This document shows, in pieces, positions 1 through 29,357 of a DNA stretch of 29,357 nucleotides. The number at the start of each line of letters is the position of its first letter. The first letter of the stretch is position 1. The notes beneath the pieces are model-generated. The model searched no databases and had not been told where the DNA came from. It was given only the letters and a program-made list of their open reading frames with translations. Position numbers and translations under genes: made by a program. The DNA is from Nannocystis sp. GTDB lineage: Bacteria; Myxococcota_A; Polyangia; Nannocystales; Nannocystaceae. Where the stretch lies: the NCBI RefSeq assembly GCF_016714285.1, contig NZ_JADJNN010000008.1, forward strand, positions 388,669-418,025, read 5' to 3'.

Positions 1-1321
1 AGACCTGCGTCCCCGGCTCCGGCTCGCCCGTCGACGTGGGCATCGACGTGGGCGCGGCCGGATGTGCGCGTCCGACAGTCCCGGCCGCGAGCGCCTCCAC
101 GACGCCGAGCACGTCGCCCCCGGCCAGCAGCGCACCGACCATCCGCCGCACCACGTTGCTCAGCTGACGCACGTTACCTGGCCACGCGTAGCGCAGCAGC
201 CGGGTCATCACCGCCGTCGGCAGCTCCCGCGAGCAGTCGCGTGTCATCGCCTCGAACAGCTCGGACTGGCCGGCGCGGCGCAGCTCGTGCTCGAGGAAGT
301 GCACGAGCAGGCGCGGCACGTCGTCGAGTCGGTCTCGCAGCGGTGGCACCACCAGCTCGTGCCCGGCGAGGCGGTGCAGCAACGACGGTCGGAACGCGCC
401 AGATTCGATCGCTGCGTCGAGGTTCGCGTCGGTCGCCGCGATCACCCGCACGTCCACGCGCCGCGCCGGCGCCCCGCCGATCGGCTGGACCTCGCCGCTC
501 TCGAGCACCCGCAGCAGCATCGCCTGCACCTCGATCGACGCCTCCCCGATCTCGTCGAGGAAGAGCGTCCCGCCGTCCGCCTCGCGGAAGTAGCCCGGCC
601 TCGACTGCAGCGCCCCCGTGAACGAACCCCGGACATGACCAAACAGCTCGGCGATCGCGGTGCCGGGGTTCAGGGCCGCCAGGTTGATCGCCACGTAGCT
701 CCTGGCGGCGCGAGGCGACGCCGCGTGCAGCGCCCGTGCGACCAATTCCTTGCCTGCCCCCGAGGGCCCGCGGATGAGCACCGGCACGGGCAGTCCGGCC
801 GCCTGTGTGATCTCGCGGCGCACCTGCTGGATCCCCGCGCTCTCGCCGACCAGGCCGTACTTCGGCGCCGGCTCTTCGCCCCCGACAACGGCGTGCAATA
901 GCAACACCACCCGCCCGCCGAGCTCGAGCACGACGCCGCGAGCGAGCCGCTCGGCGGTCACGGTCAACGGTCCTGTCAGCTGCATGGCGTCCACGGTCAC
1001 CCCAGAGCCCGCGCCCATCGGGTCGATCACCACATCGCCCGCCTCGCTGGCCCGCAACATCAGGGGTGAGCGGCTGATGTACGGGTCGAGGAGCGGCCCG
1101 GTCACCCGCCCATCTGTGGTCCGCAGCTCCGGCGTGCGCCGCGAGAGCTCCACGCCCCCTGCGAGCCCCACGAGCTCGACCCGCTCGCCGATCCGCCGCA
1201 GCGACGGGTGTCCTGCCAGCGTCAGCAGCACGCGCCGTCGTGGTGCCGCGCGATGAGTCGCCCCGTTCGGCACCCGCGTCGTCTCGTCCAGCGGCCCCAC
1301 CAATCCAACCATCGCCGACAT
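1..1321 (-). CDS. Sigma-54-dependent transcriptional activator (bacterial enhancer-binding protein) with an N-terminal FHA-like domain. Partial: the C-terminus, including the HTH, runs off the window start.
   Basis: My own minus-strand translation, in the frame with ATG at 1321-1319. This frame is missing from the ORF track because it has no stop inside the window. It reads [10 protein letters not shown]..., then a Walker [20 protein letters not shown] (plus ~745-800), then [13 protein letters not shown] and [11 protein letters not shown] (plus ~565-660), which are the hallmark GAFTGA and Walker B motifs of sigma-54 AAA+ activators. The first ~170 aa read like an FHA domain ([12 protein letters not shown]...[18 protein letters not shown]). 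The frame stays open to position 2. Confidence 0.85.
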
Positions 1322-1758
1322 CGAGTATCGGCCCAAGCAAGCGCTTGAACCAGGGACCAAGCTCGCACGCTCGTCGCCACCCGCTCGCAGGCGCAGGCGC
1401 TCACGTCGGCCGGGCCGAGCGCGCGCGAGGTACCTCAAGCGCGCGCTCGAGAGCCTGCGCGCCTCGCTCGGGGCTGAGGAGACGATGAGCGAGCAGCCGA
1501 CGGCGAGCCGTGAATCGGAGACCGGAGGTCAGGACGGACGCGCCAGCGCTCGTGCGACGCGTACACAAGGCCGCCGCGCTCGCTGGCATGGGCGGACGAT
1601 CAGGTTGTGGGTCGCCTCGAGCTCGCCGTGGCCCTCGACACGCGGGCATGCGATCAGTCCTCTCCGTCGTTGTCGTCGGCGGCGGCGGCGGGATCGTCGG
1701 TGGCGCGAGGCCGTCGTGGTTGCATCGGCCCCGCGGGTGAGGCGGGGCCGGGATCGGG

Positions 1759-7927: not shown

Positions 7928-9859
7928 GTGCGCCGCTCGCTCGAGCTGCGCCCGCAGCAGCCCGACCTCCGCGACTTCCTGGCGACCCTCGACCAGGGCG
8001 CCCGCGACGACCTGCTCGCCCGCTACCCCGTCGACCTCGAGGAGCTCGCGGCGATCGCGACGCCGGCGGCGTGGAAGGGCAAGGACGCCGGCATCCTGCT
8101 CGCGCGCACGGCCGTGCGCGTGCTCCCCAACGGCCTCAGCGAGCGCCTCGATCACCGCGTCATCCGCGTGCTCGACGACCGCGGCATCCGCTCGCAGGCG
8201 ATGCAGGGCGTCGTCTTCGACCCGGCCGAGGCCTACGTCGAGGTCCGCCGCGCCCGCGTGCGCCGGGCCGAGGGCGGGGTCGAGGAGATCGGCGACGCCA
8301 GCGTCGTCGCCCTCACCGACGCCGGTTACCGCATGTTCTACGACCAGCGCCAGCAGCGGGTCACCTTCAACGGCCTGCGCGTGGGTGACACCCTCGAGGT
8401 CGCGTTTGTCCGCCGGGACACCGCGGCGCGCAACAAGTTCGACGACTACTTCGGCGAGATCGCGGCCCTCGAGGACGTGCTGCCGCAGCGCCGCCGCGAG
8501 TACATCCTCGAGGCGCCGGCGGGGCGCAAGCTGTTCTTCAACCAGCCGGTCGAGGCCAGCCCCGGCAAGGAGCCCGGCACGACGCTCTACAAGCTGGTGG
8601 TCGGCGAGCGCAAGGGCATCCGCCCCGAGGGCAACATGCCGGGGTGGACCGAGATCGCGAAGTACCTCCACGTCAGCACCTTCGCCGACTGGGACGCCGT
8701 CGGTCGCTGGTACTGGAGCCTCGTCAAGGAGCAGCTGGTCGTCGACGCCAAGATCCGCGCCGCCGTCAACGAGGTCCTGCTCGGCCTGCCCGAGGGCGCC
8801 GACGAGCGAGCCAAGGTGCGCGCGCTCTACAAGCACGTGATCACCAGCACCCGCTACGTCGGCCTCGAGTTCGGCATCCACGGCTTCAAGCCCTACCGCA
8901 CCACCGACGTCTACGACCGCCGCTTCGGCGACTGCAAGGACAAGGCGAGCCTGCTCAAGGTGATGCTCGCCGAGGCCGGCATCGCGTCGAACCTCGTGCT
9001 GGTGCGCACCCGCGATCAGGGCACGATCGGCGCCACGCCGGCCTCGCTGTCCGCGTTCAACCACGCCATCACCTACGTCCCGAGCCTCGATCTCTACCTC
9101 GACGGCACCGCCGAGTTCTCCGGCCCGGAGGAGCTGCCGACCGGCGATCAGGGCGCGACCGTGTTGATCGTCCGCGACGGCGCCGGCGCCGAGCTGCGCA
9201 CGATCCCGACCAGCAAGCCCGGTGACAACGCCCAGACGATCCGCCAGACCATCGCCCTCGCGGCCGACGGCAGCGCCCGCGTGCAGCACGAGCTCACCGT
9301 CACCGGCGCCGGCGCGGCCGGCTGGCGCAGCATCTTGCAGAGCGCCGACAACCGCAAGGAGCGGCTCACCCACGCCTGGGGCGGCCAGTTCCCGGGCGTG
9401 GTCGTCGCCGACATCGAGGCGCCGACGCTCGGCGACGTGCTGCTGCCGGTCAAGCTGCGCAGCAGCTGGCAGGTGCCGAGCTGGGCCCAGACCCAGGGCG
9501 ACGGCCTGCGCTTCCCGGCGCTCGGCTACCGCACCGGCCTCACGCGCCAGCTCGCCGGTCAGGCCAAGCGCGAGCACGACCTCGTGATGGCCGCGCCGTC
9601 GATCGAGGACAGCCAGCTCGCGTACCAGCTGCCCCGGGGCTGGAAGATCGTCCAGGCCCCCGCCGACAAGCAGATCGACACGCCGCTGGCGAGCTTTCGC
9701 CTGCGCGTCGAGCAGAAGGGCGACACGGCCCAGGTCAGCACCCACATCGAGTACCGCAAGTCCCGCTTCACGCCCGCCGAGTACCGGGCCCTGCGCGACT
9801 TCCTCAGCCAGGTCGACGGCAGCCTCGATCAGGTGTTCGAGATCCGTCCGGAGCGCTAG
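7928..9859 (+). CDS. C-terminal part of the same protein: a DUF3857-like domain plus a transglutaminase-like cysteine-protease core with an intact Cys-His-Asp triad. The reading frame is open upstream to ~7850 and overlaps the end of the previous ORF in the +1 frame.
   Basis: FGDCKDKASLLKVMLAEAGI (Cys codon 8932-8934), SAFNHAITYVP (His) and LYLDGTAEF (Asp) form a transglutaminase-like core. Upstream of the annotated start, the same frame reads HDADIHAQIGRLAARAGDVSAAIQSVRRSLELRPQQPDL. That is a TPR helix pair continuing the TPR array of the preceding ORF. Confidence 0.8.
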   Translation: MRRSLELRPQQPDLRDFLATLDQGARDDLLARYPVDLEELAAIATPAAWKGKDAGILLARTAVRVLPNGLSERLDHRVIRVLDDRGIRSQAMQGVVFDPAEAYVEVRRARVRRAEGGVEEIGDASVVALTDAGYRMFYDQRQQRVTFNGLRVGDTLEVAFVRRDTAARNKFDDYFGEIAALEDVLPQRRREYILEAPAGRKLFFNQPVEASPGKEPGTTLYKLVVGERKGIRPEGNMPGWTEIAKYLHVSTFADWDAVGRWYWSLVKEQLVVDAKIRAAVNEVLLGLPEGADERAKVRALYKHVITSTRYVGLEFGIHGFKPYRTTDVYDRRFGDCKDKASLLKVMLAEAGIASNLVLVRTRDQGTIGATPASLSAFNHAITYVPSLDLYLDGTAEFSGPEELPTGDQGATVLIVRDGAGAELRTIPTSKPGDNAQTIRQTIALAADGSARVQHELTVTGAGAAGWRSILQSADNRKERLTHAWGGQFPGVVVADIEAPTLGDVLLPVKLRSSWQVPSWAQTQGDGLRFPALGYRTGLTRQLAGQAKREHDLVMAAPSIEDSQLAYQLPRGWKIVQAPADKQIDTPLASFRLRVEQKGDTAQVSTHIEYRKSRFTPAEYRALRDFLSQVDGSLDQVFEIRPER

Positions 9860-15799: not shown

Positions 15800-17173
15800 C
15801 TAGACCTTGAGGCCCGCGAGCGGTCCGGTGCTGTCGTCGCCGAAGCTCGGCGTCGGCACCTCGAAGGCCTCGGCGATCGAGATGAAGAGGTTGGCGAGCG
15901 GGGTCTTGTCCGGGACCTTGAGGTGGCGGCCCGGCGTGATCGCGCCGCCGAGCTTGCCGGCGACCAGCACGGGCAGGTCATCGTGGTTGTGGGCGTTGCC
16001 GTCCGCGATCTCCGAGCTCAGATAGACCACGGTGTTGTCGAGCAGGGTGCCGTCGCCGTCGGGGCTGTCCTTGAGCTTCTGCAGCAGTTTGGCGAACTGC
16101 GCGACCTCCCAGGTGTCGATGATCTCGAGCTTGGCGAAGTTCTCGGGCAGGTCCTGGTGGTGGCTGATCTCGTGGTGGGCCCCCGGGGCGCCGATGAACG
16201 CGTGGTCGCGGCCGCTGCCGGCGTTCTCGAGCATGAAGGAGATGACGCGGGTCTGGTCGCACTGCAGCGACAGCACCATCAGCTCGGTCATGAGGTCGAC
16301 GTGGGTCGCGTGGTCCTGGTAGGCGCCGGAGAACATCGCCGGCAGCTCGCAGACGGCCTCGGTCTTCTCGTTGCTGACCCGCTTCTCGAGGTCGCGCAGG
16401 CCGGTGAGGTACTGCTCTAACTTGTCGCGGTCGGTCTTGCCGAGCTTCTTCTGCAGATCGAGCACCTGGTCGTTGGCGTAGTCGATGACGCTGAGGCGGT
16501 TGGCGTGGCGGATCGCCAGCTGCTCGGCGGTCGCGTCGGGGTCGAAGCCGGAGAACAGCAGGTCGAAGATCACCTGCGGGTCGGACAGCTTGGGCAGCGG
16601 CGTCTTCGGGTCGGCCCACGAGATGTTGCTGGTGTAGGCGCACGAGTAGCCGCTGTCGCAGTTGCCCATGGTGCCGCCGCTGGCGGTGCCGAACTGCAGC
16701 GAGCGGTGCGGCGTCGCGTCGCCGATCTGGTTGGCGATCAGCTGGTCGATCGAGATGTTGTTGACGAAGTCGACCTCGGACTTGAGCACGTGCGTGCAGG
16801 TGAGGAAGGCCGAGGTGCCGCCGGCGTGGTCGCCGGGGCCCTCCGGCTTGGCCGGCAGGTTGGCCAGGCCGCTCAGGACCAGCACGTCGCCCTTGAGGTC
16901 GACCATCGCGTTGGCGTCGACCAGCGGCGCCAGGATCTTGGTGAGCGCGTAGTCGGGGCCCTCGCTGGCCGGGGTCCACGAGGGCATGTGGATGCCGCAG
17001 GGCAGGTAATAGAACAGGGCGCGCAGCGGCGAGGGCATCGGCGCTGCGCTGGCGCGTCCTCCGACTTTGGGCGCGAGCGCCTCGAGCCAGGGCAGGGCGA
17101 TCAGGGCGCCGGCGCCTCCGAGCATGGCCCGGCGAGACAGAGTGCGGCGAGGAGGGGTGGAGCTGCGCGTCAT
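15800..17173 (-). CDS. Tat-signal protein of the DUF1552 family (it may instead be the related DUF1501 family). This is the usual partner of PSD/PSCyt3 multi-domain proteins.
   Basis: The ORF track extends it to 17701 through an Arg/Pro-rich shadow. I place the start at ATG 17173-17171, where MTRSSTPPRRTLSRRAMLGGAGALIALPWLEALA is a twin-arginine signal with the typical ALPxLE motif. AGGAGA is 8 nt upstream. It contains an HHEISHH histidine cluster. It sits 32 nt downstream of the PSD/PSCyt3 gene on the same strand. Confidence 0.8.
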   Translation of the reverse strand: MTRSSTPPRRTLSRRAMLGGAGALIALPWLEALAPKVGGRASAAPMPSPLRALFYYLPCGIHMPSWTPASEGPDYALTKILAPLVDANAMVDLKGDVLVLSGLANLPAKPEGPGDHAGGTSAFLTCTHVLKSEVDFVNNISIDQLIANQIGDATPHRSLQFGTASGGTMGNCDSGYSCAYTSNISWADPKTPLPKLSDPQVIFDLLFSGFDPDATAEQLAIRHANRLSVIDYANDQVLDLQKKLGKTDRDKLEQYLTGLRDLEKRVSNEKTEAVCELPAMFSGAYQDHATHVDLMTELMVLSLQCDQTRVISFMLENAGSGRDHAFIGAPGAHHEISHHQDLPENFAKLEIIDTWEVAQFAKLLQKLKDSPDGDGTLLDNTVVYLSSEIADGNAHNHDDLPVLVAGKLGGAITPGRHLKVPDKTPLANLFISIAEAFEVPTPSFGDDSTGPLAGLKV

Positions 17174-17205
17174 GGTGGTGGTTCTCCTGGGCTCGCGGGC
17201 GCGGT

Positions 17206-19374
17206 TCACATCGAGGGGTCGCCGCGGCGCTGGCGGAAGGCGTCGGAGGTGACGAGGCTGACGACGAGGTCGGCGAAGCGGTACTCGCCGGTCTCGAAGC
17301 CCGCGACGACCTCGTCGAGGTAGGGGATGTCGGCCAGCGCGGTCGCCCGGCCGAGCGCGTAGATGAAGGTCTTGCGGGCGACGCAGCGGGTGAAGTCGGG
17401 CTCGCTGCTGATCAGCGTCTGCATCTCGAGGCCGTCGACGAAGGGCTTGCCGTCCGGGAGGGTGCCGCTCGGGTCGATCGTCAGCCCCTTCTCGTCGGCT
17501 CGCCAGGCGCCGAGCGGGTCGTAGTGCTCGAGGCCGAAGCCGAGCGGGTCCATGGCGACGTGGCAGCCGGCGCACTTGGGGTCGGCGCGGTGGGCCTCGA
17601 GGATCTCGCGCTGCGTCTTGCCCTCCACCGGGTCGAGCTTGGTGTCGACGCCGGGCGGCGGCGGCGGCGGGACCTGACACAGCAGGTTCTCCAGCACCCA
17701 CTTGCCGCGCTTGACCGGCGAGGTGTGATCGGCGTGCGAGAGCACGGTCATCAGGCCGGCCTTGTTGAGGATGCCCTGGAACGGCAGCTCACCGAGATCG
17801 GCCTCGACGAAGTCGGGCCCGAACGCGCCCTGCAGGCCGTAGTGGGCCGCCAGGCGCTGGTCGACGAAGGTCTTCTTGCTGGTCAGGAGCTCGAGCATGC
17901 TGCGCTCACCGGCGAAGAAGCTGGCCGCGAACAGCCGCATCTCGGTGCGCATCGAGGCCTTCATGCCGTCGTCCCACTGCGGGTAGAGCAGGACGTCCTT
18001 GAAGGCGAGGTTGACGTTGCGGATCAGCCACCACTGGCCGGCGAAGTTGTCGATGAGGGCGACGGCCCGCGGGTCCTCGAGCATGCGCCGGGCCTGCAGC
18101 TCGACCTGCTTCGGGTCCTGCAAGTTGCCCTGGTCGGCGGCCAGCAGCAGCTCGTCGTCGGGCATGCTGCTCCACAGGAAGTAGGACAGGCGCGAGGCGA
18201 GCTCGTGGTCGGCGAGCGGGTGCGGCGTGAGGTCGGTCGGGGTCGGGTCGAGCTCGACGCGGAACACGAAGTGCGGCGAGACGAGCACCGCCTGGAGGGC
18301 GACGCGCAGGCCGGCCTCGAAGTCCTGACCGGCGGCCTTGGCCTCGCTGATGAACTGGTAGAGGCGCTCGACCTCGGCGTCGCTGATCGGGCGGCGCCAG
18401 GCCCGACGGGCGAAGGCGCGGAGGATCTCGCGGCCGCAGCTGTCCTCGCCGTCGACCACGGGGTCGCAGATCATGATGCGCTTGCGCTGCTCGTTCTCCC
18501 CCATCACCAGGTCCTGCGGGCCCTCGACGCTGAACCAGTCGACCAGCAGGTTGCGGTCGGCCATCAGCATCTCGTCGTAGTAGTCGTTGGTGAACTCGAC
18601 CGCGAACTTGTGCAGGCCGGCGGTGGCCTCGATCTCGACCTCGTAGATCGCGGCGGCGTTCTCGACCGCGTCGGTGTCGACCATGAAGACCGGCACCTGG
18701 TCGACGGTGAGGTTGACGTGGGGGAGGTCGGGTCCGGCCTGCTGACCCCAGACGCGGGCGCGAAACAGGTACTTGCCGGCGTAGGGCAGCTCGATGGTCT
18801 GGTACACCTCGCCGTTGGAGTAGAGGTTCCAGGCGTCGCCCGACTGCTGACCGACCGAGGCGAGGGCGGTCTCCGCCTCGATCTGGAACTTGGTCGGGTC
18901 GGTGATCGGGATCGCCATCGCCTCGGCGATGAGGCCGTCGGCGGCGCGCTCATACAGCTCGGCCTGCAGCGGCGAGGTGCTGAGCACGTCGGCGATGTTG
19001 TCGAAGCCGAGGCCGAAGTCGTCGGCAGGGAACGCGTCGGCCGGGGTCTGGCTGGTGCCGAGCAGGTCGCGGACGGTGTTGTTGTACTCGTTGCGGTTGA
19101 GGCGGTGGATCGTGACGCGGCCGGGGTCGTCGGCCTCGCCGCCGCTCTCGGCGGTGTCGGTGGCCGTGGTGTCGTCGCCGACCGAGGTGGTCGGCGGCGT
19201 GTCTGTCGCGGAGCCGGGCTCGGTGGCGGCGCCGGTCGCCTCGCTCGCGCTGCCCTGACTCGAGTCGCCGCAGCCGCTCACGGCGACGAACAGCGCGAGG
19301 CCCCACGTCGCGCCGCCGAGCGCGGCGAGGTCCGATCGACAGAGGATGTTGCGGTGGTGCAGGGAAGCCATCAC
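17206..19374 (-). CDS. Multi-domain DUF1587/DUF1595/DUF1592/DUF1588(PSCyt3)/DUF1585 lipoprotein (Planctomycete-type PSD/PSCyt family) with a CxxCH heme-binding-like motif.
   Basis: Lipoprotein signal (LALFVAVSGC). DUF1587-like RLNRNEYNNTVRDLLG. DUF1595/1592-like LASRLSYFLWSSMPDDELL. PSCyt3-like KCAGCHVAMDPLGFGLEHYDPLGAWR. The poly-Pro stretch CQVPPPPPPGVD is typical of the family. Confidence 0.85.
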   Translation of the reverse strand: MMASLHHRNILCRSDLAALGGATWGLALFVAVSGCGDSSQGSASEATGAATEPGSATDTPPTTSVGDDTTATDTAESGGEADDPGRVTIHRLNRNEYNNTVRDLLGTSQTPADAFPADDFGLGFDNIADVLSTSPLQAELYERAADGLIAEAMAIPITDPTKFQIEAETALASVGQQSGDAWNLYSNGEVYQTIELPYAGKYLFRARVWGQQAGPDLPHVNLTVDQVPVFMVDTDAVENAAAIYEVEIEATAGLHKFAVEFTNDYYDEMLMADRNLLVDWFSVEGPQDLVMGENEQRKRIMICDPVVDGEDSCGREILRAFARRAWRRPISDAEVERLYQFISEAKAAGQDFEAGLRVALQAVLVSPHFVFRVELDPTPTDLTPHPLADHELASRLSYFLWSSMPDDELLLAADQGNLQDPKQVELQARRMLEDPRAVALIDNFAGQWWLIRNVNLAFKDVLLYPQWDDGMKASMRTEMRLFAASFFAGERSMLELLTSKKTFVDQRLAAHYGLQGAFGPDFVEADLGELPFQGILNKAGLMTVLSHADHTSPVKRGKWVLENLLCQVPPPPPPGVDTKLDPVEGKTQREILEAHRADPKCAGCHVAMDPLGFGLEHYDPLGAWRADEKGLTIDPSGTLPDGKPFVDGLEMQTLISSEPDFTRCVARKTFIYALGRATALADIPYLDEVVAGFETGEYRFADLVVSLVTSDAFRQRRGDPSM

Positions 19375-19559: not shown

Positions 19560-20645
19560 ATGCGTGGGGTCCTTGGTCTGGTAGCCGGGCTGGTTGCGAT
19601 CGCGGGGGCCGCTGGCTGCCTCGTCGTGAAGATCGACACCAGCGACTCGCTGACCGACCTGTCGCTCAGCGACACGCTGACCGACAGCTTCACCCTGACC
19701 TCGAGCCCGACCGACACCCTGCCGACCGGCGATCCGACCGGCGATCCGACCAGCGTGACGGACACGGACACGGACACGGACACCACGCCGGGGGTGTGCG
19801 GCGACGGGCAGGTCGGGGTCGGTGAGGCCTGCGACGACGGTGACGCGGACAACAGCGACGAGTGCCTGGCGAGCTGCGAAGTCGCGAGCTGCGGCGACGG
19901 CTTCGTGCACGCGGGCGTCGAGGCCTGCGACGACGGCAACCAGAACGGCGGCGACGGCTGCGAGCCCGACTGCACCCTCGGCGAGTGTGGCGACGGCGTG
20001 GTCCAGGGCGGCGAGCAGTGCGACGACGGCAACGGCGACAACGCCGACGATTGCCTGGCCACCTGTCTGAACGCGAGCTGCGGCGACGGCTTCGTGCGCG
20101 CCGGCGTCGAGGCCTGCGACGACGGCAACGCCAGCGACACCGACGCGTGCGTGCAGGGCTGCGTGGCGGCGAGCTGCGGCGACGGCTTCGTGCAGGCCGG
20201 CACGGAGCAGTGCGACGACGGCAACCAGACGCCGGGCGACGGCTGCGACAACTGCATCAGCGACGCCCTGCCGCCGGAGTGTCAGGGCATCGCGGTGCTG
20301 CAGGAGGCCTCGCGCAACGTCAGCGCCGGCACGGACGAGGTCGAGTGCGATCTCGAGCTCCCCGTCGAGGGCCAGTGGTCGCGCTTCTCGGGCCCCGCGG
20401 GCACGACCATGCCGACGGTCGCGCCGCCGGAGTTCGCCTGCGGGACGCACGCCCCGGGCTGGCTCAATGGTGCGATCCCCGTGCTGGCCGACGGCATCGT
20501 CGCGCGAGACGTGTGTTTCCACTGGGAGGGCAACACCTGCAACTGGAAGGTCCCGATCTCGGTGCGCAACTGCGGGCCCTTCGTGATGTTCAAGCTGATG
20601 CCAGTGCCGACCTGCGCCCTGCGCTACTGCGGCAGCGAAGGTTGA
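19560..20645 (+). CDS. Lipoprotein with five Myxococcus cysteine-rich repeats (TIGR02232-type C-G-D-G...E-x-C-D-D-G-N...D-x-C) and a C-terminal Cys/Trp-containing domain of unknown function.
   Basis: Signal plus lipobox ([20 protein letters not shown]). D/T/S-rich linker (TDTDTDTDT). Repeats [27 protein letters not shown] / [28 protein letters not shown] / [27 protein letters not shown] / [28 protein letters not shown] / [27 protein letters not shown]. The repeats are also visible as ~57-nt near-identical DNA blocks, for example 19882-19938 versus 20075-20131. Confidence 0.85.
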
Positions 20646-20672: not shown

Positions 20673-21800
20673 GTGAGGATGTCCGCCGCGCCGCGTCCCT
20701 GGTCCCTCGCGCTGTCCTTCCTCGTGATCGGGGCCTGCGGGCGCGGGGAGCTCGCGGTGACCGAGAGCGGATCGAGCAGCGGCGGCAGCACCGACGACGT
20801 GACGACGACGGGCGCGCCCACGACCATGCCGCCGACCACCACGGTCACGCCGACCACGTCGCTGACCAGCGGGGACCCGACCAGCGAGAGCGACACCAGC
20901 ACCAGCAGCAGCAGCGGCGATACCAGCACTGGCACTACGGGCACGGTCGAGACCGGCGGCAGCAGCAGCGGCGGCGCGAGCAGCAGCGGATCGAGCGGAG
21001 GCGACACTGGCGGCAACAGCTGCTGCGTCGCCAGCGACGCGCCCGGCTGCGACGACGTGAAGGCCGAGGCATGCGTGTGCGCGGCGGCGCCGGAGTGCTG
21101 CGCCGACGCTTGGAGCCTGGGCTGCGTGGCCAAGGTCGACCTGCTCGGCTGCGGCGACTGCGGCGGGCCGCCGCCGAAGGGCGAGTGCTGCGAGGTCGGC
21201 GTGGTGCCCGGCTGCAGCGATCCCGCGATCGAGGTCTGTGTGTGCGAGCAGATGCCGGAGTGCTGCTCGGACGTCTGGACGGCCGAGTGCGCGGCGGGGA
21301 TCGAGGGCCTGATGTGCGGCAGCTGTGGTCCGGGCCCCGAGGCGTGCTGCGAGGTGCAGCAGACCCCGGGCTGCCCGAGCCCGCAGATCGAGGACTGCGT
21401 GTGTGTGGTCGACGCGTTCTGCTGCGAGTCGGCGTGGGACGATATCTGCGTCGGTGAGGTCGACAGCCTCGGCTGCGCGATGTGCCCGGTGCCGGTCGGG
21501 CCCTGCTGTGAGGGCAGCGGCGGGCTCGGCTGCGAGGACCCGGGCATCACCGCCTGCGTGTGCGCGGCGATGCCGAGCTGCTGCGACAGCGAGTGGACGG
21601 CCGAGTGCGCGGCGATGGTCGAGCCGCTCGGCTGCGCGATGTGCCCGAGCAACTGCTGCGTGGCGCACGGGGACCCCGGCTGCGAGGAGCCAGCCGTGAA
21701 CGACTGCGTGTGCGCCCAGGACAGCTTCTGCTGCACGGACTTCTGGGACGATATCTGCGTCTCGGAGGTCGAGGGGCTGGGCTGCGGCAGCTGTGCGTGA
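20673..21800 (+). CDS. Lipoprotein carrying five tandem copies of an apparently unnamed ~48-aa repeat with 10 cysteines each: CC-x6-GC-x7-CVC-x5-CC-x3-W-x3-C-x7-GC-x2-C.
   Basis: Signal plus lipobox (LALSFLVIGAC). Long S/T/G tether. Repeats begin CCVASDAPGCDD..., CCEVGVVPGCSD..., CCEVQQTPGCPS..., CCEGSGGLGCED..., CCVAHGDPGCEE..., each with conserved CVC, a PECC/FCC pair, W and LGC-x-x-C. GTG 20673 and ATG 20679 are alternative starts. Confidence 0.75.
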   Translation: MRMSAAPRPWSLALSFLVIGACGRGELAVTESGSSSGGSTDDVTTTGAPTTMPPTTTVTPTTSLTSGDPTSESDTSTSSSSGDTSTGTTGTVETGGSSSGGASSSGSSGGDTGGNSCCVASDAPGCDDVKAEACVCAAAPECCADAWSLGCVAKVDLLGCGDCGGPPPKGECCEVGVVPGCSDPAIEVCVCEQMPECCSDVWTAECAAGIEGLMCGSCGPGPEACCEVQQTPGCPSPQIEDCVCVVDAFCCESAWDDICVGEVDSLGCAMCPVPVGPCCEGSGGLGCEDPGITACVCAAMPSCCDSEWTAECAAMVEPLGCAMCPSNCCVAHGDPGCEEPAVNDCVCAQDSFCCTDFWDDICVSEVEGLGCGSCA

Positions 21801-21801
21801 C

Positions 21802-23103
21802 TCACTCGACGGTGGCGATCAGCTCCTTGAACTTCGGCGCGTGGGTCATCTCTTGCAGCTGCACGGCGGGCCGCGGCATCGCCTCGCCGCCGCGCAGCTT
21901 GCCGAGGTGGTCGCTCCAGCGGGTGTCTGACGGGTAGATGACGACGCTCGGCAGGGTCTTGCTGTGGAAGGCCCGCTGCATGGCGAGCTTGCCGTCGTCG
22001 GCGCTGGTGACGTCGATCTTGATCAGCTCGAAGCGGGCATTGAGGAGCGGCTCGACGCTGGGGTCGTGGAAGGTGAGCTTGTCCATCTCGAGGCAGGGGG
22101 CGCACCAGGTCGCGCCGAAGTCGATCACGACCGGGAGGTGGCGCTCCTCGGCGGAGCGCAGCGCGGCCTCGAGGCCGGCGCTGTCCTCGACCGTCCGCCA
22201 GGCGCCGCTCGGGACGTAGATCATGTTGTTGATCGCTATCTGGGCGCCCAGCACGGTGAGCGCGACGGCGACGCCCTTGCCGAGCTTCTCGCCGAGGCCG
22301 CCGTAGAAGCTGCGGTGGATCGCGCCGCCGAGCAGGCCGGCGAGGGCGAGCGCGACGCCGAGGTAGAGGCCCCAGGTCGGGTCGGTCATGAAGCGGCGCA
22401 GCGCCGGCGACAGCGGGGCGACGAACCACAGGGCCATGACCACGAGGGCGATGCCGAAGAAGCTCTTGACGTACTCCATCCAGCGGCCGGGGCGAAACAG
22501 GCTGGCCCCGAGCGCGACGGCGAAGAACAGGCTGCCCATGCCGAGCGCGTAGGTGAAGAGGAGCGAGCCGCCGTGGAACACGCCGCCGCCGTCGGCCGAG
22601 GACGCGGCGATGTACGCGAGCAGCGAGAGCAGCACCGGGCCGGTGCAGGGCGCCGAGATGAAGCCGCTGACGAGGCCCATGCCGAAGGCGCCGAGCGGAC
22701 CGGCGCCGCCGACCGAGTTGAGCCGCGTCTGCAGGGAGCTCGGCAGCTGGAGGTCGAAGGCGCCGAACATGCTGGCCGCGAGGGCGAGCAGGAGGCCGAC
22801 GATCGGCAGCACCACGACGGGCTCGCCGAGCCAGGCCCCGAACTGGCCGCCGGTCAACGCGACGACGATGCCGAGGGTCGTGTAGAGCGAGGCCATGCCG
22901 AGCACGTAGGCGCTGGCGAGGAACAGCGCGCGCCCGCGTGACACGCCCTGGGCCCCGAACACGGCGACGGTGATCGGGATCAGCGGGTACACGCAGGGGG
23001 TGAGGTCGACCAGGACGCCCTGACCGAAGGCCCAGGCGTAGGTGCCGAGAGTGGCCGCCTGGAGGCCGTCGGGCGCGAGGAGGGAGGCGAGGAGTGTCGT
23101 CAT
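21802..23103 (-). CDS. DsbD/CcdA-type thiol:disulfide electron transporter fused to a C-terminal thioredoxin domain (WCAPC). It lacks the N-terminal DsbD-alpha domain.
   Basis: Polytopic membrane core with the two conserved CcdA/DsbD cysteines (DLTPCVYPLIP and FISAPCTGPVLL). C-terminal periplasmic thioredoxin fold VIDFGATWCAPCLEMDK. Its stop (21802-21804) lies 1 nt from the convergent stop of the Cys-repeat lipoprotein gene. Confidence 0.85.
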   Translation of the reverse strand: MTTLLASLLAPDGLQAATLGTYAWAFGQGVLVDLTPCVYPLIPITVAVFGAQGVSRGRALFLASAYVLGMASLYTTLGIVVALTGGQFGAWLGEPVVVLPIVGLLLALAASMFGAFDLQLPSSLQTRLNSVGGAGPLGAFGMGLVSGFISAPCTGPVLLSLLAYIAASSADGGGVFHGGSLLFTYALGMGSLFFAVALGASLFRPGRWMEYVKSFFGIALVVMALWFVAPLSPALRRFMTDPTWGLYLGVALALAGLLGGAIHRSFYGGLGEKLGKGVAVALTVLGAQIAINNMIYVPSGAWRTVEDSAGLEAALRSAEERHLPVVIDFGATWCAPCLEMDKLTFHDPSVEPLLNARFELIKIDVTSADDGKLAMQRAFHSKTLPSVVIYPSDTRWSDHLGKLRGGEAMPRPAVQLQEMTHAPKFKELIATVE

Positions 23104-23220: not shown

Positions 23221-24948
23221 TCACCCGGGGATCGGCGGCTCGCACAGCCCGCCCGACTCGATCTGGGCGTTGGTGCGGAAGGTGTTGAGCGCCTTCCACG
23301 AGGGCGGCTCGAACTGCGGGATGGTGCCGTCCTCGCGGACGTTGGTCACGTGATAGGTGTGTTGATTCCAGATCCGACGCGCCTGGATCCACCGGTCACC
23401 CTTGTCGCGGATGACCTGCACGGTCGGCGAGCTCATGCCGCCGTATAGGTTGGAGACGACGACGATCTCGGCGGAGCCGTCGTTGTCGACGTCGGCGACG
23501 ATCGGGTACTCGGTGCCGGTGGCGCTGCTGCGCGGGGTCTTCAGCAGCGGCGTGCCGGCGCCGTCGAAGACGAACATGAATTGCTCGTCGGCGTACATCG
23601 CCTCGGCGATGCCGTCGCCGAGGAAGTCGAAGGCCGTACCGGCGGCGATGCCCGACTGATCCGAGACGGTGGCCTTCCAGATGATCGTGGCATCGGCGCG
23701 GTAGCTGGCGTAGTTGTTGCCCGAGCTGACGGCGTAGTCGCTGATGTCGTCGCCGTTGAAGTCCTGGATGGTGGCGGGGCGGTACCAGACGAGGCCGTTC
23801 GGCGGGTCGCCGGTCGGCCGCTTGTCCTGATACTTGATCGCGCCGGTGTGATCGAGCAGCGAGATGCCGTTGACGTTGGTGAGCAGCACCTCGGGCTCGG
23901 GGTCGCCGTCGAGGTTGGCGACCTGCGGGAAGCCGGGGAGCAGGTTGGTGTTGTAGTAGATGGTGCCGTCGTGGTGCACGGCGGCGTGGCCGATGACGAC
24001 CTCGAGGTCGCCGTCGCCGTCGAGGTCGGCGGCCGCGGTGGCCGAGTAGTTGGGCGCGGCGGCGGCGGCGGTCCACAGCAGGGCGCCGTTGTGATCGAAG
24101 AGCTGGTTGCCGCCGAAGATCTCGATGTCGCCGTCGTTGTCGAGGTCGGCGAGGCCGAGCGCGGCGATGTAGGAGTTGGCCCACGGGGCCTGGCTCTGCC
24201 ACTTCTGGGTGCCGTCGTGCTCCCACGCGATCAGGCGGCCGTCGGAGCCGGCGCTGACGATCTCGGCGATGCCGTCGCCGTCGATGTCGCCGAGGGCCGG
24301 TGTGACGGTGGAGTCGACCGGCGCGGCGAGCTGGAAGTGGGCGGTGCCGGTGGCGCCGTCGAGCACGTAGATGTGGCCGGGGCCGCCGATCCCGGTGGCG
24401 GCGACGACGACGATGTCGGGGATGTCGCAGAGGTCGATCGCGCCGTCGGCGTTGTCGTCCGTGAGGTTGGCGACCAGCGGCGTGACCACCGAATAGATCT
24501 CGCCGTTGGCGCCCGGCCAGCTCCATTGCACTTCGGGCTCGAAGCTGTCGGCGGGGGCCTCGTCGTCGCACTCGCCGATCGCGTTCATGTCGTCCTGCAC
24601 CTTGCACAGGTCGACGGGCGGGCCGGTGGTGCTGCTGGTGCTGGGGTCGCCGGTGCTGTCGGGCGTACCCGTGGTGCTGGTGCTGCCCGGATCGCCGGTG
24701 GTGCCGGTGAGGGTGAGTGCGCCGCTGCTCGCGTCGCCGCCGCTGCTGTGTGACTCGCTCACGCCGCTGTCGGTGGTGGCGCCGGTGGTGATGCTCGTGG
24801 TCGGGAGCGGGTCGCTGGTGCTCACGCTGACGCCCGTCGGCGTGGTCGGGCCAGGGCCGTTGCTGGTGCCGCTGTCATCGCGGCCGCCGTCGTCGCCGCA
24901 GGCGAGGCCGAGGGTGAGCGCGCCGAGGGCGAGACGGAGGGGCTGCAT
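23221..24948 (-). CDS. FG-GAP/VCBS-repeat beta-propeller lipoprotein, a paralog of the 1759..4371 gene.
   Basis: Lipobox LGLACGDDGG. T/S/G-rich tether. FG-GAP blades (DIDGDGIAEIVS, DLDNDGDIEIFG, DLDGDGDLEVVI, DFNGDDISDYAV, DFLGDGIAEAMY, DVDNDGSAEIVV). Shared C-terminal motif RIWNQHTYHVTNV...FEPPSWKALN, compared with RPVWNQHTYHITNV...AEPPSWATPA in the first paralog. Confidence 0.85.
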   Translation of the reverse strand: MQPLRLALGALTLGLACGDDGGRDDSGTSNGPGPTTPTGVSVSTSDPLPTTSITTGATTDSGVSESHSSGGDASSGALTLTGTTGDPGSTSTTGTPDSTGDPSTSSTTGPPVDLCKVQDDMNAIGECDDEAPADSFEPEVQWSWPGANGEIYSVVTPLVANLTDDNADGAIDLCDIPDIVVVAATGIGGPGHIYVLDGATGTAHFQLAAPVDSTVTPALGDIDGDGIAEIVSAGSDGRLIAWEHDGTQKWQSQAPWANSYIAALGLADLDNDGDIEIFGGNQLFDHNGALLWTAAAAAPNYSATAAADLDGDGDLEVVIGHAAVHHDGTIYYNTNLLPGFPQVANLDGDPEPEVLLTNVNGISLLDHTGAIKYQDKRPTGDPPNGLVWYRPATIQDFNGDDISDYAVSSGNNYASYRADATIIWKATVSDQSGIAAGTAFDFLGDGIAEAMYADEQFMFVFDGAGTPLLKTPRSSATGTEYPIVADVDNDGSAEIVVVSNLYGGMSSPTVQVIRDKGDRWIQARRIWNQHTYHVTNVREDGTIPQFEPPSWKALNTFRTNAQIESGGLCEPPIPG

Positions 24949-27004: not shown

Positions 27005-27628
27005 CTACTTGGCGGCCGCGTTGGAGGCCAGCTCGGTCAGCTTGGCCTCGAGGCGGGCGATCAGCTCGTTGATGCCCTTGTCCTTGAGGATCTTGTTGAA
27101 CTCGAACTTGTAGTTCTTCGCCAGGCTGATGCCGTCGGTGATGATGTCCTCGGTGAGCCAGACGCCGTTGACTTGGTGCATCACGTAGACGACTTCGACG
27201 ACCTCGGGCTTGCCGTCGCGGCTGAGCGAGACGTTGGTGATGACGTGGGTGCCGCGGGGCTTCGTCTCCTCGCCGACGTAGGCCAATTCGTACTTCTTGT
27301 CGGTCCGGATGCGCTTGAGGTAGTTCTCGCGGATGAGGCGGGTCAGCAGCGCCTCGAACTCGGCGCAGCGCGGCTCGCACTTGGCGGCGTAGCGGGCGGG
27401 GCCGCCGAGCGAGGTCTCGGCGAGCGCCTTGTAGTCGAGCAGCGCGTCGACTTCCTTCTGCAGCGTGGCGATATCGGCACGCTTCTTCACCAGCTCGACG
27501 ACCTTCCCGTGGCGGGCCTTGAAGGTGTCCATCGCGCCCTCGGCGGCGGCGGCGGGGCGGGCCAGGCCCAGCAGGCACACAGAGGAGAGGGCGAGCCCGG
27601 TGATGAAGTTTCGTGCGGAATTCAGCAT
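27005..27628 (-). CDS. MlaC/Ttg2D-family periplasmic lipid-binding protein (auxiliary component of ABC-type phospholipid transport).
   Basis: Signal peptide (MLNSARNFITGLALSSVCLLGLARPAAA|AEG). The C-terminal HQVNGVWLTEDIITDGISLAKNYKFEFNKILKDKGINELIARL matches the conserved W-x-x-D-x-I-x-E/D-G-x-S...KGI block of E. coli MlaC. RBS AAGAGG is 6 nt upstream of the ATG. Confidence 0.75.
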   Translation of the reverse strand: MLNSARNFITGLALSSVCLLGLARPAAAAEGAMDTFKARHGKVVELVKKRADIATLQKEVDALLDYKALAETSLGGPARYAAKCEPRCAEFEALLTRLIRENYLKRIRTDKKYELAYVGEETKPRGTHVITNVSLSRDGKPEVVEVVYVMHQVNGVWLTEDIITDGISLAKNYKFEFNKILKDKGINELIARLEAKLTELASNAAAK

Positions 27629-27675
27629 TGGTGCCTCTTTGAGTGGCGCTCAGACGCCTTGCGTTACAGTGCGAT

Positions 27676-29357
27676 TCACGGAGTGGGTGGTGTCGCGCCT
27701 GCGGGGTCCTGAAGCGACACTCCCACGGTACGCGAGAGCGAGGCCAGCGCGACGTTCTGGGCATGGATGGACTCGAAGTGCTTGAAGCGCCACTCGGCCC
27801 AGCGGGTGAGCGCCCTCTCGAGGTCGGTGAAGTTGCCGCCACCGACGGTCTGCTTGAGCTGTTGGTCGATGACCAGCTGTTTGGCCTTGCGGATGGCGCT
27901 GGCAGTGAGCTTGACCGCTTGTTCGGCTTCGAGCAGGTCGCGGTAGGCCTTCTCGACCTCGAGGGCGAGCAGCAGGTTCGCTGCCTCACGCTGGGCCTCG
28001 GCCTCGCGGCGCTCGGCGCGGGCCTTCTTCAGGTTGAAGGCCTGGTTGTGGAAGTCGAGGGTCCAGTTGAGGGCGAGGGCGAGGACCAGGCGGCTGTAGT
28101 TGAAGCGGTCCTGATAATACAGGGCGCGCATGTCGCGGTCGGCCTTGTTCGAGAAGGCGATCTGCACCGAGGCGACGACGCCGAGGTCGGGGAGGAACAT
28201 CGAGCGGGCGAACTTCTCGCCGGCCTTGCGGAGATCGACCAGACCGGCGGCCATCTTGGCCTCGGGGCGGGCCTTGAGACCGAGATCACGGTAATGGTCG
28301 ACCGGTTTGAGGCCGCCCGCGACGCGGTCCGTGAGCAGGTCGCGCTCGCTGACATCGAAGCCGGGCGGGGCGGCCTCGCCGGCGATCGTCCACAGGGTCG
28401 CGAGGGCGACGGCCTCGATCTTGCGGGCCGCGTTCATGCGCTCCTGCAGGGTGAGCTCGCCGAGCTCGACGCGGATGAGGTCGGCGGGGTCGCGGTCGGG
28501 GTTGGCCTCGTCGGGGTCGGCGTCGTCGCCCTCGCCGAGCTCCTTCGCGATCTGCCGCTTTGCGTCCTGCAGGACCGACCAGGCCTCGTGCAGGATGCCG
28601 ATGCTGCCGCGCGCGAGCAGGAGGGCGGTGTGGGCCTGATAGACGCGGAGGATGGTCTCCTGGCGGGCGCGCTCCTTGGCGAGCTGGGCCAGGGCGACGC
28701 CGGCGCGGGCCATGGCCTTGCCGTTCTTGATCTTGCCGAAGGTGTAGAGGGGGACGACGAAGTCGGCGTTGAAGCGGACGGTGACGCCGGCGCCGGCGAG
28801 CTGCTTGAAGTAGCCGCCGACGGTGTCGATGTCGACGCCGCCGGGCGGGCGGCAGAACTGGAAGTCGATCGGCGTCGTTGTGCCGAGCGCGTCGCTGGCC
28901 GGGAGGGTGAGGTCGTCGCAGCGGGTCTGGAAGCCAGGCGCGAGCGCGGTGGTGGTCTTGATCACCGGGACCCAGGCGAAGCGGGCCTTGAGCAGGACGG
29001 CCTCGAGCTGCTCGACCTGGGCGTCGGCGGCGCGGATCAGCGGGTTCTGCAGGCCGAACTCGACGATCTGGGCCCGGCTGAGCTGAGGGACGCCGTCGGG
29101 GCGCGGACCGTAGGCGTCCATGCGGCGGGCGGGCGGGAGCTCGAAGAGGTCGGCCGGGGCCTGGGCGCCCGCGCTGCTGCGGGTGCTGAGGACCGGGGTC
29201 GCGGCGGTGGTGGCGGGCTTGCTGTCCTTGGGGACAGGTGTCGCGGTGGTGGGGTTGCTGTCCTTGGGGACAGGTGTCGCGGTGGTGGGGTTGCTGTCCT
29301 TGGGGACAGGTGTCGCGGCGGGGTTGCTGTCCTTGGGGACAGGTGTTGCGGCGGTTT
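27676..29357 (-). CDS. TolC-like outer-membrane factor (OEP family) with an N-terminal repetitive Pro/Thr-rich linker. Partial: the N-terminus runs off the window end.
   Basis: The ORF track starts it at Met 29121, but that Met is not followed by a signal peptide. My translation of the same frame is open to 29355 and reads TAATPVPKDSNPAATPVPKDSNPTTATPVPKDSNPTTATPVPKDSKPATTAATPVLSTRSSAGAQAPADLFELPPARRMDAYG..., so the real start is beyond the window. The body has the paired coiled-coil and beta-barrel repeats of OMF proteins (for example QERMNAARKIEAVALATLW, NWTLDFHNQAFNLKKARAERREAEAQ). Confidence 0.85.
   Translation of the reverse strand, partial: TAATPVPKDSNPAATPVPKDSNPTTATPVPKDSNPTTATPVPKDSKPATTAATPVLSTRSSAGAQAPADLFELPPARRMDAYGPRPDGVPQLSRAQIVEFGLQNPLIRAADAQVEQLEAVLLKARFAWVPVIKTTTALAPGFQTRCDDLTLPASDALGTTTPIDFQFCRPPGGVDIDTVGGYFKQLAGAGVTVRFNADFVVPLYTFGKIKNGKAMARAGVALAQLAKERARQETILRVYQAHTALLLARGSIGILHEAWSVLQDAKRQIAKELGEGDDADPDEANPDRDPADLIRVELGELTLQERMNAARKIEAVALATLWTIAGEAAPPGFDVSERDLLTDRVAGGLKPVDHYRDLGLKARPEAKMAAGLVDLRKAGEKFARSMFLPDLGVVASVQIAFSNKADRDMRALYYQDRFNYSRLVLALALNWTLDFHNQAFNLKKARAERREAEAQREAANLLLALEVEKAYRDLLEAEQAVKLTASAIRKAKQLVIDQQLKQTVGGGNFTDLERALTRWAEWRFKHFESIHAQNVALASLSRTVGVSLQDPAGATPPTP
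29221..29357. repeat. At least four tandem copies of a 33-36-bp unit (gctgtccttggggacaggtgtcgcggtggtggggtt) extending to the window edge. Each copy contains the palindrome CTGTCC-TTGG-GGACAG. It encodes the TPVPKDSNPTTA repeats of the OMF N-terminal linker.
   Basis: Direct reading: copies at 29221-29256, 29257-29292, 29293-29325 (3-nt deletion) and 29326-29357+ (truncated by the window). Confidence 0.9.

Follow-up and report, generated by a model that had tools for sequence, protein, structure and literature searches.

Among the described systems, the TIGR02232/DUF4215 repeats are acidic, cysteine-rich tandem repeats of tethered Myxococcota lipoproteins, with the motif CGDG-x7-C-DDGN-x5-C-x3-C, a length of about 31 amino acids (aa) and four cysteines. 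Metallothioneins are likewise rich in cysteine, with CC, CxC and CxxC motifs, and they have neither an aromatic or hydrophobic core nor any regular secondary structure unless metal is bound. The EGF, granulin and Dickkopf modules are small, disulfide-stabilised extracellular repeats that chiefly adopt β-hairpin folds. Here we compare with these systems the product of a gene in a stretch of 29,357 nucleotides (nt) from Nannocystis sp. (contig NZ_JADJNN010000008.1, positions 388,669 to 418,025; hereafter the window), which contains five tandem copies of a ten-cysteine unit and which a model reading the DNA letters alone (the first-pass annotation) had singled out as carrying an apparently undescribed repeat. 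We conclude with high confidence that this Nannocystis gene is genuine and that it encodes a lipid-anchored protein of the envelope or cell surface in which five independent mini-domains of 47 aa, each with three short predicted helices and most likely five intramodule disulfides, are the sole folded part, and that the module belongs to a very large family that is unnamed and structurally unsolved.

The protein, here called the target, resembles the TIGR02232/DUF4215 proteins in its acidic, cysteine-rich tandem repeats and its tethered lipoprotein setting, and the gene immediately upstream of it contains five repeats of that type, but the motif, length and cysteine number of the unit are different. 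In hidden Markov model (HMM) searches, the target gave no match at E ≤ 1 to TIGR02232 or PF13948 (DUF4215), for which the cut-offs are 20.8 and 27 bits, while the upstream neighbour, searched alongside it, reached 104.5 and 87.1 bits. A comparison of the target with the neighbour's TIGR02232/DUF4215 repeats by hhalign gave a probability of 0.2%, and membership in TIGR02232 was rejected on the basis of these two results. The similarity to metallothioneins lies in the cysteine content and the CC, CxC and CxxC motifs. However, the target differs from them in having an invariant tryptophan, a hydrophobic core, a confidently predicted helical fold and a parity in its cysteine number. The whole target did not match the metallothionein HMM, and the sole Pfam match was that of one isolated unit to Metallothio_Cad (PF07846), with an E-value of 0.16 and 13 bits against a cut-off of 27. 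With the EGF, granulin and Dickkopf modules, the target has in common a flexible Ser/Thr-rich stalk and small extracellular repeats stabilised by disulfides, a likeness that we regard as analogy and not homology; there was no sequence or profile match to these modules, and the target module is predicted to be three-helical.

A scan of Pfam-A (24,736 models) and NCBIfam with the whole target returned no matches, even at E-value thresholds of 1 to 10, and the repeat region and five homologues matched none of the Pfam-A families at E ≤ 10, EGF, granulin and Dickkopf among them. Neither the sequence nor the fold matched any chain in the PDB. These searches, together with the hhalign result, agree with the first-pass annotation, which could not assign the repeat to a named family. 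The sole catalogued family that touches these proteins is PF26780 (DUF8252), which is itself uncharacterised and belongs to a Pfam release newer than the copy of Pfam-A that was scanned. Precomputed annotations place it on 39 of the 47 homologues described below, where it is called faint on the lipoprotein family, including the target, in that no single match reaches an E-value of 0.001, and merely weak on two proteins with 25-33 units (P0048 and P0059). A confident match to a Pfam or TIGRFAM repeat family, which would have taken the novelty from the repeat, was thus not seen, the annotations for PF26780 being faint to weak only. This family is at best a distant or low-information relative of the ten-cysteine unit, and a Pfam DUF may loosely cover the module. 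A literature search for PF26780, DUF8252 and Nannocystis cysteine-rich lipoprotein found nothing. The module is new in that it has neither a name nor a solved structure, but it is of an already familiar kind, the cysteine-rich extracellular repeats. A more distant parallel is provided by the trail adhesive proteins of diatoms, in which mucin-like, Pro/Thr/Ser-rich regions alternate with cysteine-rich regions and some of which contain DUF4215 repeats (bioRxiv 10.1101/2023.03.06.531300). The likeness to the target is in this case limited to the architecture, and is an analogy.

The five units have an identical cysteine spacing, CC-x7-C-x7-C-x-C-x5-CC-x3-W-x3-C-x8-C-x2-C, with cysteines at unit positions 1, 2, 10, 18, 20, 26, 27, 35, 44 and 47 and a tryptophan at position 31, in line with the five regularly spaced copies originally reported. 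Some details of that report needed correction. The repeat length had been given as about 48 aa, while the core unit has 47 aa and recurs with a period of 48-55 aa; the last spacer had been given as x7-LG, but reads C-x6-LG-C. The cysteine content had been set at more than 20% of the protein, whereas the actual values are 13.6% for the protein (51/375) and 19.3% for the repeat region (50/259), and 21% (10/47) is reached only within a unit. The units align with each other without gaps at 42-55% identity and are separated by linkers of 3-8 residues, most of which are rich in Pro/Gly. All five match positions 1-47 of the unit profile, termed A1, at 45-57 bits, although A1 itself contains these five, and a six-frame scan of the window with the profile identified these five copies and no others. 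The repeat region, of 259 aa, is strongly acidic, with 44 Asp+Glu versus 3 Lys+Arg, an isoelectric point of about 4 was calculated for the mature protein, and the composition includes a single histidine. In the DNA, Tandem Repeats Finder detected no tandem repetition with the period of the units, whose duplication is therefore old. A unit-by-unit comparison of the target with the protein P0002 showed identities of 82-91% on the diagonal and 40-57% off it. The units are positionally orthologous, and the five positions have therefore been individually maintained and not homogenised.

The structure of unit 5 was predicted by AlphaFold2 with an alignment of 108 units, giving a predicted local distance difference test (pLDDT) score of 96 and a predicted template modelling (pTM) score of 0.74. 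The model contains three short helices, which span residues 13-22, 25-28 and 33-41 of the unit. In the full-length AlphaFold2 model, residues 1-110 have block-mean pLDDT values of 41-52 and the five modules mostly have values of 80-97, with dips at the linkers and a pTM of 0.40, and the modules are thus modelled as beads on a string without a fixed arrangement. Conservation was derived from 114 distinct units of canonical spacing in the homologues. The conserved residues are the ten cysteines, Val19 and Trp31, both of which are invariant, Pro8-Gly9, Gly43, Gly45, and Asp12, Asp23 and Asp32, and hydrophobic residues are conserved at positions 15, 19, 25 (Phe/Tyr), 31, 36, 39 and 42. The three aspartates are located directly before, or at most two residues from, the helix starts in the model, which suggests that they cap the helices. 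Every conserved residue looks structural. The first-pass annotation had proposed a compact, disulfide-knotted module from the spacing of the cysteine and tryptophan residues; the pLDDT of the unit model and the cysteine parity favour a module that is compact and probably locked by disulfides, with a fold predicted to be helical.

A search for homologues identified 47 proteins that match the target repeat region at E ≤ 1e-3. Their usual design is a lipobox, a tether and then 3-7 units, and the full-length lipoprotein homologues contain 31, 41, 51 or 61 cysteines, which corresponds to ten per unit plus the lipobox cysteine (the 10n+1 rule). The orthologue in the cultured type strain N. exedens DSM 71 is 49% identical to the target and has 586 aa and as many as nine units, of which units 7 and 8 are almost identical and therefore indicate a recent tandem duplication. 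The profile A1 comprises 108 units, including 103 from other proteins that have the canonical ten-cysteine spacing of the target, and was used to search 1.84 billion representative proteins. This search returned 2,755 representatives of clusters at 50% identity with E ≤ 1e-3, and 1,201 with E ≤ 1e-10, in proteins of up to 3,635 aa and with up to 33 units each. The profile search beyond the target that the first-pass annotation had proposed for myxobacterial proteomes thus yielded 2,755 clusters that extend beyond the myxobacteria. Hence, the term undescribed is apt for the function and structure of the repeat, but the repeat is not rare, since a large family is already present in the databases as hypothetical proteins.

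The module is found mainly in Myxococcota, Planctomycetota and Flavobacteriales, and the named or typed examples are from Deltaproteobacteria/Myxococcota, Planctomycetota/Phycisphaerae, Flavobacteriales and Acidobacteriota. Its partner domains include Trypsin, Astacin, Reprolysin, pullulanase X25, CBM96, galactose-binding-like and GBD_T9SS domains, as well as GEVED with Por_Secre_tail (the tail of the type IX secretion system, T9SS), FG-GAP, Sortilin/BNR, Laminin_G_3, CHRD and LTD, and further cupredoxin, MopE, dockerin and Dicty_CTDC domains. All of these partners are diverse and extracellular, and by this measure the module is itself extracellular and promiscuous. In at least one T9SS protein, P0130, the units follow an N-terminal domain and precede the GEVED/T9SS sorting domains at the C-terminus. 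Variant units have eight cysteines, a Cys18 shifted to position 15, or a CC at positions 15-16 accompanied by the absence of both Cys2 and Cys18, and Cys44 and Cys47 are gained or lost jointly among the variants. As a guide to which cysteines pair, these patterns are suggestive but ambiguous. In the wider family, an even number of cysteines (8, 10, 12, 14 or 16) was counted in 794 of 856 unit periods (93%). The giant proteins P0048 (locus L032, 4001..11080) and P0059 (locus L030, 991..6471) contain 25-33 copies of the module, and P0048 additionally contains Dicty_CTDC repeats. An eight-cysteine variant, C-x8-C-x4-CC-x3-C-x5-CC-x3-WD-x2-C, is present in several giant proteins, including P0059. 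A peptide precursor, such as that of a ribosomally synthesised and post-translationally modified peptide, was also considered and was rejected because the target has a lipobox and the module also forms part of large enzymes.

The target starts with a predicted lipoprotein signal peptide. Its N-terminus, SLALSFLVIGAC followed by GRGE, contains a hydrophobic segment and then a lipobox that fits the pattern [LVI][ASTVIG][GAS]C, by pattern match only, with Cys22 (nt 20736-20738) as the predicted lipidated residue. A lipobox-like motif also precedes the tether in most full-length homologues. Of the 94 residues in the tether, 24 are Thr, 24 are Ser and 19 are Gly, and the tethers of the homologues, which are 55-97 aa in length, have the same composition, rich in Ser, Thr, Gly, Pro and Asp. 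The DNA of the tether contains short low-complexity repeats, as identified by Tandem Repeats Finder. The lipobox, the tether and the five units can all be read from the sequence (Table 1), and the earlier description of a tethered lipoprotein with five ten-cysteine modules therefore stands. The Ser/Thr/Gly tether of about 100 aa, which had been noted in the first-pass annotation, is present but is common among the lipoproteins in the window and is not specific to the target. A lipobox followed by a low-complexity tether rich in Ser, Thr, Gly, Asp and Pro opens four neighbouring genes, at 17206..19374 (-), 19560..20645 (+), 20673..21800 (+) and 23221..24948 (-).

Table 1. Features of the target gene, its two flanking genes and the N. 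exedens orthologue; positions refer to the window unless another locus or contig is named.
Feature	Position	Strand	Basis or remark
Whole gene, including stop codon	20673..21800	+	Open reading frame list, GC3, identical database protein, dN/dS
Type II (lipoprotein) signal peptide, ending in lipobox L-V-I-G-A-C	20673..20738	+	Read from sequence
Ser/Thr/Gly-rich low-complexity tether, 94 aa, predicted disordered	20739..21020	+	Composition, low pLDDT
Unit 1, aa 117-163 (47 aa, 10 Cys)	21021..21161	+	44.8 bits against the unit profile
Unit 2, aa 172-218; most similar to unit 4 (55% identity)	21186..21326	+	44.7 bits
Unit 3, aa 225-271; most similar to unit 5 (55% identity)	21345..21485	+	53.9 bits
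Unit 4, aa 278-324	21504..21644	+	49.0 bits
Unit 5, aa 328-374; nearest to the family consensus, the unit modelled	21654..21794	+	56.9 bits
Upstream lipoprotein, five DUF4215/TIGR02232 repeats and C-terminal uromodulin-type D8C (PF23283, E 4.3e-15)	19560..20645	+	HMM matches
DsbD-like protein, DsbD_TM and C-terminal thioredoxin-like domain (WCAPC), lacking the alpha domain	21802..23103	-	HMM matches
Orthologue in N. exedens DSM 71	L011 5515..7275; NZ_NETK01000001.1 about 8,367,006-8,368,766		Nine units

The gene for the upstream lipoprotein ends 27 nt before the target on the same strand and encodes a C-terminal D8C domain, which is otherwise known mainly from animal uromodulin-type proteins. 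It remains adjacent to the target orthologue in five other loci (L008, L009, L010, L002 and L006), including those that lack the DsbD-like gene. Because of the short gap and the conserved gene order, the two genes are likely to form an operon or two-gene unit, and the D8C lipoprotein is a better candidate for a functional partner than the DsbD-like protein since it is retained in loci where the latter is not. The DsbD-like gene is convergent with the target, with the two stop codons separated by 1 nt, and its product covers positions 171-548 of the PRK00293 model at 247.6 bits against a cut-off of 330. It is also adjacent in three metagenome-assembled genomes of Nannocystis (L008, L009 and L010), where the target is 76%, 65% and 55% identical, but not in L002 and L006 (52% identity), in N. 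exedens DSM 71 (L011, 49%) or beside any of the more distant homologues. The association is confined to a single lineage and is probably not that of a dedicated partner. Hence, the location next to a DsbD-type transporter, as pointed out in the first-pass annotation, was confirmed, but the implied link is weak since the genes are convergent and the adjacency is kept only in the three loci L008, L009 and L010. An operon with the DsbD-like gene was rejected on the grounds of the convergent orientation and of a synteny confined to one lineage.

The open reading frame encodes 375 aa from a GTG start, while the NCBI start is the ATG at 20679, which gives the 373-aa hypothetical protein P0001 (Nannocystis sp. 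GCA_016717175.1, contig JADKFZ010000004.1), 100% identical to the target. That the frame should be a chance product of GC-rich DNA, or a decaying repeat, is extremely improbable. Long spurious reading frames are numerous in such DNA and several overlap the region in other frames, but the GC content at third codon positions (GC3) of the target is 0.94, matching the coding signature of a genome with 72% GC, and only the target frame maintains this value throughout the region. The same architecture is moreover seen in the 47 homologues, all 50 of the 50 repeat cysteines are kept in the orthologues, and the units are positionally orthologous between them. The ratio of nonsynonymous to synonymous substitution rates (dN/dS) was estimated at 0.24 in the comparison with the closest orthologue (L008, 76% identical), by which the gene is considered to be under purifying selection. 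Sequence conservation thus effectively refutes the reading of the region as a non-gene. The target nevertheless diverges faster than its neighbours, since its identity to the L008 orthologue of 76% is to be compared with 86-97% for DsbD, the PSD protein, HXXSHH and the outer-membrane efflux protein (OEP). A scan of the GC-rich region for promoters and terminators gave nothing useful.

The even cysteine parity and the 10n+1 rule, together with the invariance of Trp and Val, the confident helical core and the presence of the module in T9SS-secreted and protease-fused proteins, favour five intramodule disulfides per unit rather than metal-thiolate clusters. A metallothionein-like sink, in which the CC, CxC and CxxC motifs would bind Cu, Zn or Cd while the DsbD-like neighbour keeps the cysteines reduced in the periplasm, was considered and appears improbable. 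The motifs are indeed of the metallothionein type, with the very weak match to Metallothio_Cad, a DsbD-like reductant importer adjoins the gene in four Nannocystis genomes, and some family members have MopE copper-binding or cupredoxin domains. However, thiolate clusters impose no parity, and the predominance of even-cysteine periods and the 10n+1 counts would be unexplained; the invariant Trp/Val, the conserved Phe/Tyr, the hydrophobic core and the confident helical fold are unlike metallothioneins; histidine occurs just once; T9SS-secreted and protease-fused extracellular proteins represent an oxidising setting; and the DsbD-like gene is convergent and missing beside the orthologues of 49-52% identity and the more distant homologues. 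Slightly less probable still is that the protein is a dedicated DsbD client or redox buffer, with its 50 cysteines cycling between thiol and disulfide as an envelope sink or sensor, or, in a weaker version, that it strictly requires a DsbD-driven isomerase pathway for folding. The retention of the adjacency in L008, L009 and L010, even where the target is down to 55% identical, speaks for such a role, and 25 disulfides might plausibly need isomerisation. Against it, the convergent orientation with stop codons 1 nt apart makes a shared transcript impossible, the two genes are not neighbours in L002, L006 and N. exedens DSM 71, the distant homologues have no DsbD gene beside them, and the synteny block also includes the unrelated MlaC and OEP genes, as shared ancestry alone would give.

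In the account that we favour, the precursor would be exported by the Sec pathway, lipidated at the lipobox cysteine and, by the lipobox rule, probably sorted to the outer membrane. The tether would serve as a flexible stalk of about 30 nm at full extension, and the periplasmic oxidising machinery would close 25 disulfides to give five very stable, strongly acidic beads. The array of beads may be a module for binding, adhesion or matrix contact, with the specificity residing in the variable surface, and the target probably acts jointly with the co-oriented upstream DUF4215+D8C lipoprotein. The binding role is inferred because the module is apparently accessory to secreted proteases, carbohydrate-binding modules, FG-GAP proteins and T9SS cargo. 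We regard these steps, from export to the D8C partner, as a tentative proposal that may well need revision, and the favoured reading as a whole as evenly poised between being right and wrong. Several observations weigh against it. No conserved surface patch was identified on the module, the acidic bead array could be explained equally well as an inert spacer or polyanionic coat, and the gene neighbourhood is not conserved outside Nannocystis, which makes the context of little help for the function. Furthermore, dN/dS against the more distant target orthologues is 0.6-0.95, although the synonymous-site estimates are unreliable at a GC3 of 0.94. The strongest competing explanation, which we consider possible but rather unlikely, is that the beads have no specific ligand and form an inert stalk or coat, either as a protease-resistant spacer or as a polyanionic brush on the cell envelope for charge shielding, hydration or cation buffering; in the multidomain proteins, the module would then merely space catalytic domains from their anchors. 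The conserved residues that all look structural while the surface positions vary, the extreme charge of the repeat region, the location of the units in P0130 between the N-terminal domain and the C-terminal sorting domains, and the elastic copy number, with 3-9 units in the lipoproteins, up to 33 elsewhere and the recent duplication in N. exedens, are all as expected for a stalk or coat. Yet the positional orthology suggests that each unit position is individually maintained, and the modules are the only folded domains in the lipoprotein family, so that a spacer would space nothing.

A bolder extension of the binding account, which we put forward as speculation with a small chance of being correct, is that the 47-aa unit represents a new disulfide-rich three-helix fold that serves as a general bacterial extracellular module with a defined class of ligand, a prokaryotic counterpart of EGF-like beads, and that it is part of a two-lipoprotein surface system in Nannocystis. 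Candidates for the ligand would then be polysaccharides, mineral or cation surfaces and partner proteins, for instance the D8C protein. A more radical version assigns redox or metal activity to the 50 cysteines, with the DsbD-like neighbour servicing them. Much of the significance lies in the abundance of the module, which spans 2,755 clusters and at least Myxococcota, Planctomycetota and Bacteroidota, reaches 33 copies in a single protein, and yet is unnamed and unsolved. Defining it would annotate thousands of secreted proteins that are now called hypothetical, and would add a tiny helical scaffold of 47 aa, probably with five disulfides, to the known stable frameworks. The conserved pairing with a bacterial lipoprotein of the uromodulin-type D8C class hints at an uncharacterised myxobacterial surface system. 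The results have no bearing on any long-standing open question, and cysteine-rich repeat lipoproteins are commonplace in Myxococcota.

Several other genes were recorded in the window and at related loci. A sigma-54 activator gene at 2..1528 (-), truncated at the edge of the window, a DUF3857/transglutaminase-like/DUF3858 protein at 7928..9859 (+) and a pair consisting of MlaC and OEP at 27005..29121 (-) have no evident link to the target. A Planctomycete-type pair at 15800..19374 (-) consists of an HXXSHH (DUF1552) protein and a PSD/PSCyt protein, the latter with the domains DUF1592/1588/1595/1587/1585 and a CBM60-like insert. In the Nannocystis loci this pair keeps its synteny with the target block, and the N. 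exedens orthologue has a paralogous pair beside it. Finally, two distant homologues with about 40% identity, at L004 8845..9231 and L007 7133..7495, have a convergent gene for a TerB-domain protein directly downstream.

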